Made by a program: the position numbers and the translations under genes. DNA of 48,083 nucleotides from an uncultured Candidatus Saccharibacteria bacterium (GTDB lineage Bacteria > Patescibacteriota > Minisyncoccia > Phycocordibacterales > DATDWN01): the NCBI GenBank assembly GCA_964576615.1, contig CAZNUU010000006.1, positions 1 to 48,083 of the forward strand, written 5' to 3'. Below, one piece after another: positions 40,484 to 46,420 of the stretch (position 1 is its first letter; every line of letters begins with the position of its first letter). Below the pieces are notes generated by a model, which did not search any database, was not told the DNA's origin, and saw only the letters and a program-made list of their open reading frames with translations.

Positions 40484-41035
40484 TTATTTCTCCATCATTC
40501 TGGGAACCCTCCTCATTCTCTCATCCCTATAACCAAGCAGGTATTTTTTCGGATTATCATCCAGGTCTATAAAATCATCAACTGCTTCGATAAGTCTGCC
40601 AGAAGAAGCCTTACCAAAGGCCATAGCTTCAACCTGACAACCTTCATTTACCTTAAGATACTCCACCAGCGGTACGAAATCTCCGTCACCGGAAACAATG
40701 ATTACAGCGTCCAATTTTGGAGCTAATTTTATCGCATCCACTGCAAGTCCCACGTCCCAATCTGCCTTTTTTGCTCCGCCTGAAAAGATTTGAAGGTTTT
40801 TTGTCTTGGCCTCAATGCCCATCTTCTCCAACGCCTCAAAAAAGCTTTTTTCCTCACCCGACTCTGTGGTTATCACGTAAGCCACACACCTTATAATCTG
40901 TCTTCCGGCTAAACCATCTTTTACTACTTGTCCAAAATTTACTTTGCAACCATAAATGTTTTTTGCAGAGTGGTATAAGTTTTGGGTATCTATGAAAATT
41001 CCCACTCTCTGATTTTTGTGTTTAATTACTGCCAT
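40484..41035 (-). CDS. NYN domain (LabA/DUF88, PIN-like) protein
   Basis: IFIDTQNLY, KADWDVGLAVD, VSGDGDFVPL. Confidence 0.93.
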   Translation of the reverse strand: MAVIKHKNQRVGIFIDTQNLYHSAKNIYGCKVNFGQVVKDGLAGRQIIRCVAYVITTESGEEKSFFEALEKMGIEAKTKNLQIFSGGAKKADWDVGLAVDAIKLAPKLDAVIIVSGDGDFVPLVEYLKVNEGCQVEAMAFGKASSGRLIEAVDDFIDLDDNPKKYLLGYRDERMRRVPRMMEK

Positions 41036-41629: not shown

Positions 41630-42373
41630 ATGTTTGAAAAATATCTCAAAGATATTGGTCTAAGTGATAAAGAAGCAGCCGTCTATATTACCCTCCTTTC
41701 TTTCGATAAGGCACTTATTGCTGAAATTTCTACAAAAGCCAAGGTTAAACGTCCAACCACATACGTTATTTTGGAATCCCTTCAGAAAAAGGGTCTAGTT
41801 AGTGAAACAAATATCGGCAAAAAAACTTTTTATATGGCTGAACCCCCTGAGAAACTAGACATGTTTGTGGAAAGACAGATCCATTTGTTGGAAGAAAATA
41901 AAAAAAGCTTAGATGTAGTCATTCCCCAGCTTAAAGGAATGCAAAGAGAACAGGGGGAAAAACCTATGGTCCAATTCTATGATGGCAAAGAAGGTGTTTT
42001 AAGCTCTAATTATGATACGTTTGCCAAAAAATTTGATAGTGAGCCGGTTTATATTGTCTACTCTAGAGATTTAGTTAAAGACGTCTTTACTGAAAAAGAA
42101 TCTAAAGTTATGAGGGATAAACGAATATCTATGGGGATTAAATCTAAAGCCCTGTATAACTCCCATGAAGGTGAAAGGCCATCTGATGAAACTGGTTATA
42201 GATTAAAAATCGATGAAGCCAAGTATCCAATCAACAGTGATGTAACAATATATGGGGATCAAGTCAAAATTGCAGTTTTTGGTAAAAGAATTTCCGCAAT
42301 CTCAATTAAAAGTAAAGAATTCGCTGATACCCTCAAAAGTTTAATAAATTTTATCTTCGATAATAAAAAATAG
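41630..42373 (+). CDS. TrmB-family transcriptional regulator
   Basis: GLSDKEAAVYITLL...RPTTY.IL.SL..KGLV winged HTH plus C-terminal effector-like domain. Confidence 0.9.
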   Translation: MFEKYLKDIGLSDKEAAVYITLLSFDKALIAEISTKAKVKRPTTYVILESLQKKGLVSETNIGKKTFYMAEPPEKLDMFVERQIHLLEENKKSLDVVIPQLKGMQREQGEKPMVQFYDGKEGVLSSNYDTFAKKFDSEPVYIVYSRDLVKDVFTEKESKVMRDKRISMGIKSKALYNSHEGERPSDETGYRLKIDEAKYPINSDVTIYGDQVKIAVFGKRISAISIKSKEFADTLKSLINFIFDNKK

Positions 42374-42416: not shown

Positions 42417-42672
42417 CGCCCACCGATCACTCTCGGATGGGTCAGAGCAGAGAAAACACTTCTTCTTGCGTCGGCGCACCACTACTGGTTCGTCGAAGTC
42501 CGAGATGATCCCTCTTTGCATCGCTTCCGGGCGGACGCAGCCCCTTTTTCAGTCGTGCATGACATTTTCTCCTCGACTCCTATCGACTGGACTGACCGCC
42601 AAGCCTTTACCCGGGGCACCAATTTCACCCCGGGCCAGCCCGCTACGCATCAGTCGTTCATAGAACCTCCTA
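42417..42672 (-). other. GC-rich short transcription unit (structured sRNA or micro-ORFs)
   Basis: Lies between a minus-strand promoter and the 42385 hairpin; GGAGG precedes ATG AAC GAC TGA; nested stems GACTGA/TCAGTC and CCCGGGG/CCCCGGG; no convincing long ORF. Confidence 0.45.
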
Positions 42673-42678
42673 CATATA

Positions 42679-42706
42679 AGTATATACCCTATCTTTTATT
42701 TGTCAA
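42679..42706 (-). promoter_or_regulatory. Sigma70-type promoter
   Basis: Minus strand TTGACA-16 nt-TATACT. Confidence 0.7.
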
Positions 42707-42848
42707 ATCCAAGTGACACAAGCATCATGGTTGTTTTAAAGAAGTCCGATTTTAATTTAAAAAGTCAGACTAAATTAATTTAATTAATCAAAATATGGCT
42801 TTAAATAAGGCCATATTTTTGTATATAATGAGAAAATGTCAAAACAAC

Positions 42849-42877
42849 TTGACAAAATAACGAAACGGGTATATACT
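42849..42877 (+). promoter_or_regulatory. Near-consensus sigma70 promoter of the large ncRNA
   Basis: TTGACA-17 nt-TATACT with AT-rich upstream sequence; predicted start about 42884. Confidence 0.85.
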
Positions 42878-42883
42878 GTCCGT

Positions 42884-44135
42884 GTAAGTTGATATGAGGT
42901 CGCTGATTCAACTGCGAGGCAACCGTCCAGATTATTATCACGGACCCGCAAATCAGTAAATTTCAGAGAACTTAAGGTTTTTTACAAGATGGAAGGGGCT
43001 AGCTAATAACTATCCTCTCCACTTAAGAAGATTTAAGAAGTCTTTTTAAGTGGGGGTGGGTAGGATGCCAAATATAACGCAGATGGGGATCTCCTAGCGT
43101 TGAGCGACGTTAGGAGTTCTGCGGGCCAGGGGCGTCGAGTACGCCAAGGCCAACCCAAAATGGGACCGGTTGGACGGAGTCCACCGTGGGCTGACGCCTC
43201 GGTTCGCTCCCGAGTGCTAGGTCCCAGTCCAATCCCATCCCCACGTTCTTTACAACATGGTGAATCCGCGAGGGCCACCATTGCTCCTAATCAGAGCCGG
43301 GATGTTATCGCAGTCCTGGGAACAGAAAATGCATACGCGGAGAGGCTAAATCCGAGAGAACAAAGAACTAGGCTAGCCACCTTAACGGCCTGTTGTGAAG
43401 TGTGTGCTTCACCTGATGAGATCAAAAGATCGAAACAGAAGTTTTTTGAAAAAAATTCCAACAATGCTCACAGAGCGTATTCGGAACTCAAATCAAACTT
43501 GAGAGTCGAATATGCTCTGGAGAGCATGACAGTCCAGCAATGGACGATTTGTCTCGGCCAGCACGTCCGAGGCAGGGTATGCCGAAAGGTAAATCCTAAT
43601 CTCCACGGAAGTGGTTATGAGTAGGGTCTACCAAACCCGAGGTCTCTTAGCCAATTTCGCTTTTCACGCTTGGCAGTGTGGAAGGAGTCAGAAGACAAGC
43701 AGATCCGAGGGAGTTGCATCCCGAAGGGTTTCTGCCGAAAGGCAGGAGCGTGCCAACGCCTGTAAGTTGGAAAGTCAGTGGCTAAGCTTAGGGGTCGCAA
43801 GCCTCTTTGTGAATGCCTCTCCCATTACTGACAAAGTGCTGCAGCAAACTTTCAAAGTTTGCCAAGGTAAAGATGGGGGAAAGTTGTGAGCGTAGGGCCA
43901 GGCCCCGTCAGGGGAAGTGAGGATTTGACCCCTCACATGCGAAAAGCCCCGGCCAGGGTGGATCGCAATAAGCTCACAATGGAGCCGCAAGGCAAATCGG
44001 GCAACCGGATACCTCATAAGGGTGCAGGTTGTGGTCAAAAGAGTGAACCGGTGGCAAACCGGTGGTAAAAGCGAGGGGTCACCCTTGCAAACTCACTCAC
44101 GGGGCGAACGTTGACCTTATGTCGCTCCACTTAGT
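42884..44135 (+). ncRNA. Large (~1.25 kb) ornate structured ncRNA with GOLLD-like 3' domain
   Basis: No credible ORF or RBS; dense helices (43646-43653/43779-43786, 43818-43825/43873-43880, 43884-43891/43972-43979, 44041-44046/44093-44098), many GNRA loops, 5'/3' end complementarity. The GOLLD assignment rests on remembered motif order and is unverified. Confidence 0.75.
43390..43438 (+). ncRNA. Type III hammerhead ribozyme, predicted cleavage after GUU (43394)
   Basis: CTGT-T, stem I GTGAAG/CTTCAC (loop TGTGTG), core CTGATGA (43413-43419), stem II GATC-AAAA-GATC, GAAA, and CAG closing stem III. Confidence 0.9.
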
Positions 44136-44174
44136 TCTTTGCTCTTCTTGAGCTACTCCCAACCAAGGTTGGGT

Positions 44175-44225
44175 TTCCGTAAAAATTTTTAACCAATCGA
44201 AGCTTGCTTGAAAATTTTTACGGGA
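44175..44225 (+). other. Long AU-rich hairpin between the ncRNA and the next gene
   Basis: TTCCGTAAAAATTTTTAA pairs with TTGAAAATTTTTACGGGA (18 bp, two GU pairs); no following U-tract. Confidence 0.6.
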
Positions 44226-44258
44226 ATAGTTCCCGGCAGTTCTTTCCAAGGAGACGTT

Positions 44259-44624
44259 ATGCGTATGAGTGTGATCGCGATTCTGTTCTTCCTTACCTTC
44301 GTCGTAACTCCGGTTCGATCGTCGGCGCAGGAACTCGCTTCGCCCGCCCCTGCCGCTTGCCACGACCCGGCGCCCATCGCCGGCCCCCGCGGCCCTGCCG
44401 GCCCCCGCGGCCCGATCGGGCTCGTGGGTCCCACCGGTCCCGCCGGTGAAGTGCCGGCCTGGTATCTGTGGGTCGTGCTCGGTGCGGCCGGTATCGCCAT
44501 TCTCGCACTCGGTCTTGCAATCGGTGCGTTGTCGAACCGGCCCGCTCCCGCGGCTCCGGCACCGGTGGTAGTCGTGAACTACCCGGGTGCCGCCCAGGCG
44601 CCTGTCGGTCCGCACGGACCGTAA
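44259..44624 (+). CDS. Small collagen-like membrane protein (signal peptide, 8 Gly-X-Y triplets, TM, Pro/Ala tail)
   Basis: RBS AAGGAG before ATG 44259; GPRGPAGPRGPIGLVGPTGPAGEV; TM WYLWVVLGAAGIAILALGLAIGAL; strongly GC-rich codons; 121 aa. Confidence 0.85.
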   Translation: MRMSVIAILFFLTFVVTPVRSSAQELASPAPAACHDPAPIAGPRGPAGPRGPIGLVGPTGPAGEVPAWYLWVVLGAAGIAILALGLAIGALSNRPAPAAPAPVVVVNYPGAAQAPVGPHGP

Positions 44625-44629
44625 GATCT

Positions 44630-45110
44630 TCCGGGAGTACCCGATCCTTGCGCGGGGAAACCGAGGCCTTCTGTGTTGGGCTTTAATACGAACACTCCTT
44701 AAACTTTGGTGGTCAAAAGTTCCGAATCTTTTGATTCGGTTTCCGTCAGAGATTTTTTAAAAAAGAAATTTCTGATGGGGAACGATGGATACACCAGGTC
44801 AAAGCAGGAGAAAGGCGTCGCGTAAGGGGTTCAAGGACCTGAGCTCGCAATGAGCCAGCGAGAAGCCCCGATACGCTGATTACCCGAGCCTCATTCCGGT
44901 AGTAATCGTTTCCCTTCAATTCGCGGTCCAGGCATGTGTGTGCAGATGCCAGAGGACTAGTAGAGTCGCCTTATAAATTCCTAAGGCGGATGATCCCGAG
45001 AGAGATCGAGGGATAACTGGATCGCTACGCGAGTGGCTAAGTCGAATTCCACAAGGAGGTGGCCCCGACTCGCAATGCCAAAGATCCAGACTGCACACGT
45101 TTTTCAGATG
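44630..45110 (+). ncRNA. Second structured non-coding region with predicted pseudoknot (family unknown)
   Basis: Helices 44722-44739, 44777-44786/44905-44914, 45017-45023/45083-45089; hairpin loop 44938-44945 is complementary to 45091-45098. Confidence 0.55.
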
Positions 45111-45185: not shown

Positions 45186-45392
45186 ATGGCACAGTTTGTG
45201 ATGCTGCCGGGCATGGTTATCGTGCGGTCGTTCTCCGAGGGGGACAAAATCGTGCGGAACGTGCCGGCTCGTCGGGAAACGGAAGTCGATGCCCTGGCCC
45301 ACGCTCTCTGGCTGGATCGCCGGGGGTTTGCAGCCGAGGCCGACGCCTACCTCGACGACTACATCCGGCGCAGTGCCGGGTGCCGACACTGA
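45186..45392 (+). CDS. Small GC-rich hypothetical protein (68 aa)
   Basis: AGGAGG RBS, own promoter and terminator, GC-biased codons. Confidence 0.8.
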   Translation: MAQFVMLPGMVIVRSFSEGDKIVRNVPARRETEVDALAHALWLDRRGFAAEADAYLDDYIRRSAGCRH

Positions 45393-45511: not shown

Positions 45512-46420
45512 ATGTCCTCACTTAAAAATCTGAAAACTCAATTTCTGGAATACATTGAGATCGAAAAAGGACGTTCGCTCAAAACAGTTGAAAATTATGA
45601 TCACTATCTTTCTGTATTTCTGGAGTTTTTAAAAAGCGATTCCCCTTCTAGCATTACGGATGACTCGGTTAGAAATTTTAGACTTTGGCTTAACCGTAGA
45701 CCTGCTCACAAATCTGGGCAGACTGTTTCTAGGAAAACTCAAAATTATTATCTTATTGCCTTGCGAGCATTTTTGAAATATTTAGCTAGACAACAAATAA
45801 AAACATTACCAGCGGAAAGGATTGAATTGGCAAAGACATCTGAGCGGGCACTGGATTTGATTACACCCGAGGAATTAAATCGTCTACTTAACTCACCCAA
45901 GGGAAATGATTTGAGATCGCTTCGGGATAAAGCAATTCTTGAGCTTCTTTTTTCAACTGGCCTTCGCTTATCTGAACTTTGTTCCCTCACCAAAGACATC
46001 AACTTAAACTCAGATGAACTCTCTATTCGAGGTAAAGGGGGGAAAATACGAGTGGTTTTTCTTTCGGATAAGGCTAAAAAAATTATTAAAGAGTATTTGA
46101 AGGCACGCAAAGATATGGGCGAGGCACTTTTTATTCCACTTGGCTCAAAAAAGGATAAGGAATCAGAATATAAATTTTTAAACAAGAGATCTGTAGAAAG
46201 AATAGTAAAACACTATGCAGTCAAAGCTGGAATTTCCAAAAAAGTTACGCCCCACACCATGCGTCACATGTTTGCAACTGATTTGCTTTCAAATGGTGCA
46301 GATTTACGTTCAGTGCAGGCCCTGTTGGGTCATTCCAGCATTGTTACAACTCAAATTTATACTCACGTTACCGATAAACATCTTCGCGAAGTTCACAAAA
46401 AATTTCACAACAAGAATTAG
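45512..46420 (+). CDS. XerC/XerD-family tyrosine recombinase
   Basis: TGLRLSEL, GKGGK.R, TPHTMRH.FAT.LL.NGADLRSVQ.LLGH....TTQIYTH. Confidence 0.96.
   Translation: MSSLKNLKTQFLEYIEIEKGRSLKTVENYDHYLSVFLEFLKSDSPSSITDDSVRNFRLWLNRRPAHKSGQTVSRKTQNYYLIALRAFLKYLARQQIKTLPAERIELAKTSERALDLITPEELNRLLNSPKGNDLRSLRDKAILELLFSTGLRLSELCSLTKDINLNSDELSIRGKGGKIRVVFLSDKAKKIIKEYLKARKDMGEALFIPLGSKKDKESEYKFLNKRSVERIVKHYAVKAGISKKVTPHTMRHMFATDLLSNGADLRSVQALLGHSSIVTTQIYTHVTDKHLREVHKKFHNKN

Follow-up and report, generated by a model that had tools for sequence, protein, structure and literature searches.

Type III hammerhead ribozymes were first described in viroids and plant satellites. In eukaryotic retrozymes, a non-coding unit of several hundred nucleotides (nt) lies between two such hammerheads. 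Clustered hammerheads of bacteria and phages cleave polycistronic RNAs both in vitro and in E. coli, according to Perreault et al. 2011 (PMC3088659). Here we analyze a type III hammerhead at 43390-43438 on the forward strand of contig CAZNUU010000006.1 (48,083 nt, assembly GCA_964576615.1) of an uncultured Candidatus Saccharibacteria bacterium, which lies at the 5′ boundary of a conserved non-coding RNA of about 0.75 kb. Below, 'the window' refers to this whole 48,083-nt stretch. With a probability of roughly 80%, as judged from the sequences, the hammerhead is true, probably active, and serves to trim the conserved large RNA out of a longer transcript.

The locus shares features with three kinds of described systems and differs from each. 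As in the clusters of Perreault et al. (PMC3088659), several same-strand hammerheads can occur within a few kilobases in relatives and be read as processing sites in a long transcript. In contrast to those clusters, at least one flanked unit here is a covarying non-coding RNA of ~0.75 kb rather than a gene, the locus sits in conserved chromosomal synteny beside a TrmB-like regulator, and the window hammerhead is single and could at most be a reduced version of such a cluster. The RNA of four relatives lies between two hammerheads as in retrozymes, but the locus is single-copy without repeats, RtcB was not found, and the window ribozyme has no partner. Like GOLLD, ROOL, and OLE, the RNA is several hundred nucleotides long with many covarying helices and a narrow phylogenetic range, but it matches none of their covariance models, and no tRNA gene lies in the window.

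The hammerhead itself is an additional member of a well-known class, and what is out of the ordinary is its use to delimit a large RNA of no known family. At the level of the literature listing, no mention of hammerhead-defined ends was found for GOLLD, ROOL, or OLE. For hammerheads in combination with the candidate phyla radiation, Parcubacteria, or Patescibacteria, no relevant paper was found in open full text; subscription journals and supplements were outside this scope, and a prior description is possible. The two elements in question are as follows.

43390-43438, + strand: type III hammerhead ribozyme (by sequence, descriptor, and covariance models)
43395-44150, + strand: conserved large structured non-coding RNA, the predicted 3′ cleavage product (by BLAST homologs, RNAalifold, fold z-score, and covariance model R2)

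The hammerhead reads CUGU-U / GUGAAG-UGUGUG-CUUCAC / CUGAUGA / GAUC-AAAA-GAUC / GAA / ACAG, with every conserved core nucleotide present. Stem III is open and has 4 bp, as CUGU 43390-43393 pairs with ACAG 43435-43438, and the A15.1-U16.1 pair is formed by A43435 and U43393. Stem I has 6 bp between GUGAAG 43395-43400 and CUUCAC 43407-43412 and is capped by loop 1, UGUGUG 43401-43406. Stem II has 4 bp between GAUC 43420-43423 and GAUC 43428-43431 and is capped by loop 2, AAAA 43424-43427. The core segments are CUGAUGA 43413-43419 and GAA 43432-43434. Position 17 is U43394 in a GUU site, not G, and the cut is predicted between U43394 and G43395. A sequence-only reading of the window had proposed an intact type III hammerhead with 6 bp in stem I, 4 bp each in stems II and III, and GUU at the cleavage site; every element was found where that reading had placed it, and the family covariation and the R3 model described below agree with it.

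How readily such a motif arises by chance was estimated with our own type III descriptor, which demands at least 4 bp in stem I, at least 3 in stem II, at least 3 in stem III, and the core CUGANGA. It matches once in the whole 677-kb genome on both strands. Sixty Markov-simulated genomes with the same dinucleotide make-up gave 49 lax matches (0.82 per genome) and 3 equally good ones (0.05 per genome). The bare motif is only moderately rare, so comparative evidence is needed. On these numbers, and with no Rfam call at the site, the hammerhead could be a mere consensus match within an unrelated structured RNA.

Comparison with other genomes leaves that explanation a practically negligible probability, because the site shares homology and covariation with dozens of copies elsewhere. 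When 42860-44160 was searched by BLAST against 61 related genomes, 9 were matched including its own, and the hammerhead was the most widely matched piece. The descriptor finds intact hammerheads at the homologous places and elsewhere in the same loci, with differing stem sequences. An alignment of 11 copies taken from 6 genomes is 97.0% paired over 165 cells, with changes on both sides in 11 of the 15 pairs, a result that none of 500 shuffles reached.

A covariance model (R1) made from these 11 copies yielded 85 copies, 83 of them distinct, over 44 sources. Compensatory changes are found in 13 of the 15 pairs. The percentage paired is again 97.0% (of 1233 cells), a figure that is to be discounted against our reading since the copies were partly gathered with a descriptor and model that demand pairing, which inflates it. 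The covariation score is 0.763 compared with 0.214 in shuffles (0/500 reach it), and at most 0.120 when the partners are slid.

The core is nearly invariant over the 85 copies. G5, A6, G8, A9, G12, A13, A14, and A15.1 are present in all 85, and C3 and U4 in 84. Position 7 is the only free core position (U in 82, C in 2, A in 1), and position 17 is C in 64, A in 11, U in 9 (of 84 relatives), and never G. Neither the free position 7 nor the missing G at 17 is demanded by the structure of the model. All 82 cells of the A15.1-U16.1 pair are U-A, and a stem III of 4-5 bp is the family norm. The never-G position 17 and the invariant core are the known rules of active hammerheads. Loop 1 follows UGUGUR (U80 G69 U58 G59 U58 R77 of 85) and loop 2 follows RAAA, a family-wide conservation that fits the loop-loop contact suggested by the sequence-only reading. 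One of the 85 copies, at L070:1782-1830, the 5′ copy of a two-hammerhead locus, has the core UUGAUGA with U at position 3 and may be inactive.

To remove circularity, another covariance model (R3) was restricted to 46 hammerheads of other genera, with none from the window's genus. With filters off, R3 gives 67.6 bits (E 7.4e-16) at the site, within the range of scores of other genomes' copies, and the next of the 14 listed matches in the 48 kb has 13.1 bits. A second hammerhead, even a degraded one, is thus absent from the 48-kb window, where R3 finds nothing above 13.1 bits elsewhere, and R1 finds no further hammerhead in the whole genome beyond its single match. That there is only one, as had been stated before, therefore holds. 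Compared with the closest relative (85% identity), stem II is GAUC/GAUC instead of GUCC/GGAC, with two pairs changed on both strands; pairing has therefore been maintained in the window's lineage. Site 43390-43438 is a true type III hammerhead, and its conserved catalytic core suggests that it is probably active.

The large RNA begins with the hammerhead fold, and its most conserved core is 43790-43981. BLAST detects homologs of 43395-~44150, 71-86% identical, in four genomes of the genus. In all, eight distinct members of the family were found, which include the window copy, one metagenome variant, the locus L229, and one distant relative. The distant relative, 51% identical and from another family of the order, was found only by a covariance model of the RNA core (R2, 193 positions), at 74.7 bits. 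The RNA was not found by BLAST with its 3′ domain in 400 other genomes of the order (2 candidates per genome scored), and R2 finds it in only 1 of 150 other genomes. Named metagenome-assembled genomes that carry the same RNA are recorded as Candidatus Paceibacterota, and L229 as Candidatus Saccharibacteria.

From five aligned members, RNAalifold predicts 248 pairs, of which 79 have compensatory changes. The pairs are 94.9% paired, and the 79 double-change pairs compare with 38.5 ± 4.0 in shuffles (0/500 reach 79) and 8-17 when slid, although the structure was derived from the same alignment as was tested, which favors the pair count. The fold of the window RNA has a z-score of -8.2 against shuffles, and there is no long conserved open frame in the RNA. 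The ~750-nt RNA is a real, strongly covarying structured RNA, and it is rare.

Its likeness to GOLLD, which the sequence-only reading had put forward, is unsupported because no Rfam family matches the large RNA. GOLLD, ROOL, HEARO, and OLE give no match at E ≤ 10 over 42600-44400 and none at gathering thresholds over the whole window; 8 related loci likewise show none at E ≤ 0.1, and the chance that the RNA is a GOLLD or ROOL member is vanishingly small. An nhmmer profile of 7 members matched only its own training members among the loci examined, so no other non-coding unit between hammerheads can be recognized as this RNA. Five pattern matches were rejected as chance matches. One, the metagenome locus L207, has neither BLAST similarity to the RNA nor a hammerhead; the others (L223, L225, L226, and L228, 4 of 7 pattern matches) gave nothing with R2 at E ≤ 1 or with R3 at E ≤ 0.01.

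Incidentally, RNAalifold pairs the hammerhead core CUGAU (43413-43417) with GUCAG 43774-43778, which is part of GUUGGAAAGUCAGUGGCU (43766-43783), the motif most strongly conserved in the large RNA. These five pairs have no covariation (three are invariant, two vary on one side), and the pairing may be due to chance. If true, it would sequester the core after cleavage.

The position of the hammerhead relative to the RNA was compared over the eight members. In seven, it is at the edge of the conserved RNA. Three arrangements occur among these. First, four members have same-strand hammerheads on both sides, with cut-to-cut distances of 780, 789, 800, and ~793-806 nt, the last for the metagenome variant. 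Second, the window and its closest relative have the 5′ hammerhead only; in the alignment, the position of the 3′ hammerhead is taken by a GC hairpin, then U's, then an A/U hairpin. Third, the distant relative has a hammerhead at the 3′ side only, and TTGACA-17-TATAAT directly precedes its RNA. The eighth member, at L229:1200-1800 (- strand), is a large RNA (R2 189 bits, 70% identity to the window copy over 600 nt) lacking a detectable hammerhead, so the ribozyme is dispensable for the RNA. A CUGUC-plus-hairpin remnant is seen upstream in L229 at ~1925.

The ribozyme thus marks a boundary of the RNA, present in some members and missing in others, and is not internal to the conserved fold. The sequence-only reading had placed it inside a large RNA. 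The large RNA is real, with the ribozyme at its 5′ boundary; the internal placement did not survive, as the 510 nt upstream are a folded leader that is mostly not conserved. The remaining features of the transcription unit are listed here.

42849-42877, + strand: sigma-70-like promoter candidate, TTGACA-17 nt-TATACT (11 of 12 hexamer positions match)
42886-43294, + strand: 5′ leader, main part of the predicted 5′ cleavage product (by fold z-score and BLAST)
43295-43389, + strand: conserved non-coding element of ~95 nt directly 5′ of the ribozyme (by identity in four relatives)
44158-44223, + strand: possible 3′ end or terminator made of two hairpins (by sequence and alignment with relatives)

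The leader is strongly folded (z-score -4.8; none of 100 shuffles reached its stability), and only short pieces of it match relatives. The element at 43295-43389 has 71-85% nucleotide identity in four relatives, from query position 437 onwards. It is not coding, because the matching stretch sits 3′ of the stop codon of a small open reading frame (ORF) in one relative. At the leader position, two genus relatives have a 68-aa ORF, then the non-coding stretch of ~95 nt, then the hammerhead. In the window, only the ~95-nt stretch is kept upstream of the ribozyme with no intact ORF, and a copy of the small gene lies at 45186-45392. A 174-codon ORF at 43100-43624 crosses the ribozyme and looks spurious, having no Pfam family and a frame that is not kept in relatives; its apparent protein similarity 'VIAVLGTENAYA' falls after the stop codon in one relative and in a different frame in a second. 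At the 3′ side, the first hairpin is CCCAAC-CAAG-GUUGGG followed by UUU (44158-44176), and the second is a 13-bp A/U hairpin (44177-44223).

These features suggest the following course. Transcription from a promoter at ~42850 would produce a precursor of ~1.3 kb, in which the hammerhead would fold during transcription and, given its conserved catalytic core, would cut after U43394. The cut would free a leader of ~510 nt ending in a 2′,3′-cyclic phosphate, and a structured RNA of ~750-830 nt that would start with a 5′-OH at G43395 and retain the folded ribozyme at that end. As a built-in processing site, the ribozyme would thus set the 5′ end of the RNA and split off variable upstream sequence, which includes a small ORF in relatives. 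A second hammerhead would likewise set the 3′ end in four of the eight members, giving units of 780-806 nt, while hairpins would replace it in the window genome. The fragment sizes given by the sequence-only reading, ~510 nt for the 5′ piece and ~740 nt for the 3′ piece, are in keeping with a promoter at 42849-42877 and a 3′ piece of ~750-830 nt.

Several points weigh against this reading. Rfam at gathering thresholds has no match in the whole window, and in E-value mode over 42600-44400 it gives only Hammerhead_1 at 15.3 bits (E 4.8). The window copy carries U17, which is less common in the family, and a stem II that is unusual under the Rfam model. When the isolated 61 nt are folded with ViennaRNA, stems I and II form in the minimum free energy structure but the 4-bp stem III does not, and the z-score is only -1.09. 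In L229, searches for a hammerhead at E ≤ 0.01 and for any other Rfam ribozyme at E ≤ 1 returned nothing. The promoter is a pattern match with a predicted start at ~42884-42886. The 3′ end is likewise a putative one by pattern, as a terminator scan calls only 44221-44235 and not the hairpins of 44158-44223. For 42860-44230, no RNA sequencing run is listed; there are 2 DNA runs from one study, one of which may be the source of the sequence.

RF00008, which the sequence-only reading had named as a check, does not bear out the site, since the copy is below the gathering score of 48.5 and only the 15.3-bit Hammerhead_1 appears. With the same model, 16 relatives were matched at 28-49.1 bits, and 1 of the 16 passes 48.5. 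Thus, the family is ordinary type III, and the window copy is a low-scoring outlier for RF00008. It shares with RF00008 type III the catalytic core, the three-helix junction with open stem III, the A15.1-U16.1 pair, and the non-G position 17. It differs in that the window copy is below threshold, and the subfamily has its own loops UGUGUR/RAAA, a stem III of 4-5 bp, and a distribution in small-genome bacteria and viral contigs. Weak Rfam matches to iscRS, Histone3, DnaX, and several miRNAs were set aside, since all fall far short of the gathering scores and were not seen again in relatives.

The missing 3′ hammerhead raises another explanation, that the window copy is a decaying relic, once one of a flanking pair, now without importance since its 3′ partner was lost, and intact only because the loss was recent. 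Such a relic would account for the lack of a 3′ hammerhead in the window and its closest relative when four of the eight members have one, for the lack of any hammerhead in L229, and for the U17 and poor Rfam score of the window copy. However, all invariant core positions are intact, and the R3 score of 67.6 bits is within the range of other genomes' copies. Moreover, the two compensatory pair changes in stem II separate the window from a relative that likewise has the 5′ copy only, which argues that pairing was kept after the loss. We regard a relic as unlikely.

The flanking pairs raise a different explanation, a retrozyme-like or viroid-like circular-RNA element, in which a unit of ~0.78 kb is excised by the hammerheads and ligated into a circle. 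Hammerhead cleavage leaves 5′-OH and 2′,3′-cyclic phosphate ends, which are suited to ligation. The two same-strand hammerheads 780-806 nt apart in four of the eight members would suit such an element, but the window has a single hammerhead. RtcB (PF01139) was not found in the window's genome, which is 94% complete; among 41 genus genomes, it is present in one, and that one has no hammerheads. The locus is also single-copy, without repeats, and in conserved chromosomal synteny. Perreault et al. (PMC3088659) sought circular products from the bacterial clusters and saw none. The single hammerhead, the absence of RtcB, and the single-copy locus favor linear end-trimming over circle formation, which we consider highly improbable.

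The hammerhead subfamily is much more widespread than the RNA. R1 finds it in 8 of 41 genomes of the genus and 36 of 151 genomes sampled from the order, own genome included in both, and a phylum-wide sample of 151 genomes contains 17 with an R3 match. Among IMG/VR viral contigs, a strict subtype pattern matches at least 120 stretches, and R1 gives 130 copies in 80 listed stretches, often several per stretch. Six IMG/VR contigs (L150, L109, L121, L141, L099, and L140) have 4-6 copies per stretch; the subtype is therefore common to phage-like contigs and small-genome bacteria. In all 21 loci with at least two hammerheads, the copies are on one strand, with spacings of 287-2692 nt.

The 40 inter-hammerhead units are mixed. 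Many have only short open stretches, and several consist largely of open frame, possibly for small proteins. In two, there is a long Ro60-like ORF of ~560-615 codons. These two units, from two order genomes, are at L072:1902-3746 (+ strand) and L078:1836-3518 (- strand), where a Ro60-like gene (TROVE and Ro60 vWA domains; 614 and 560 aa, respectively) lies between two hammerheads and adjoins further non-coding hammerhead-flanked units. Bacterial Ro60 genes are usually adjacent to Y RNAs, so these non-coding units could be Y-RNA-like.

Units of the open-frame kind, including the two with a Ro60-like gene, would suit a role of the cut in cis-regulation, that is, in controlling mainly the stability or translation of a neighboring mRNA, either that of the small ORF found upstream in relatives or that of the downstream secreted protein, rather than maturation of the large RNA. 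The placement of the hammerhead between a 67-68-aa ORF and the RNA in relatives, in either order, points the same way, as does a same-strand ORF with a ribosome-binding site downstream of the RNA. However, the window has no intact ORF upstream of the ribozyme but only a non-coding tail element, and the part that is conserved and covarying is the RNA. Cis-regulation as the main function is improbable, and trimming of the large RNA is preferred.

The neighboring genes include the following three.

41630-42373, + strand: TrmB-like winged-helix regulator (Pfam PF01978, E 5.9e-15)
44259-44624, + strand: 121-aa ORF whose N-terminus is signal-like and which has Gly-Pro repeats and a single hydrophobic span (by sequence)
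45186-45392, + strand: 68-aa protein with homologs beside the hammerhead and RNA in three genomes

The TrmB-like gene is also upstream on the same strand in two genus relatives. Elsewhere, the ORF closest upstream of a hammerhead locus is TrmB-like in 9 of 36 cases, each time on the opposite strand (~245-270 aa; L033, L052, L061, L065, L067, L068, L073, L074, and L080), compared with 0 of 37 for the closest downstream ORF. The TrmB-like protein may regulate hammerhead loci or be their partner. At the position of the 121-aa downstream ORF, two-hammerhead relatives carry an unrelated small lipoprotein. The same-strand order of TrmB-like gene, leader, hammerhead, RNA, and small secreted protein is common to the window and two genus relatives.

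The 68-aa gene is ~1 kb downstream in the window, while in L070:1470-1673, L002:1222-1425 (- strand), and L212:2226-2426 a 67-68-aa protein adjoins the hammerhead and RNA, in either order. The protein occurs in 8 of 41 genus genomes, namely 3 of 5 RNA carriers and 5 of 36 non-carriers, and in 3 of 151 order-sample genomes, including both RNA carriers. Its link to the RNA is partial. It has no Pfam match, and a word-index search returned only the query.

Other observations concern the surroundings. G+C content is 52-57% over 43000-45000 compared with ~39% elsewhere, a region that spans the RNA and the 121-aa Gly-Pro-repeat membrane protein; part of this increase may come from the structure of the RNA itself. 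Next comes a tyrosine recombinase gene at 45512-46420 (Phage_integrase, E 2.6e-43). An NYN-domain (RNase-like) gene at 40484-41035 (- strand) is within 2.5 kb of the window hammerhead, and another, at L060:290-811 (- strand), is the nearest downstream ORF at a different hammerhead locus. Genes resembling the CCA-adding enzyme (HD and tRNA_NucTran2_2) are downstream at the hammerhead loci L033 and L080.

Beyond this locus, we conceive that the ~0.75-kb RNA represents an undescribed class of large ornate RNA in Candidatus Paceibacterota-like bacteria, which matures itself via its own flanking hammerheads beside a TrmB-like regulator and often with a 68-aa partner, and whose two-hammerhead forms perhaps persist in an excised, possibly circular state. 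This broader proposal is tentative, and we put it at somewhat short of even odds.

If the hammerhead trims the RNA as proposed, a large bacterial RNA gains a maturation step that is defined and can be tested, with ends predicted exactly. Exact ends are a requirement for making the RNA for structural or binding studies. The family would also provide a bacterial example, encoded in DNA, of two type III hammerheads enclosing a long non-coding unit, a layout otherwise known, to our knowledge, from eukaryotic retrozymes.

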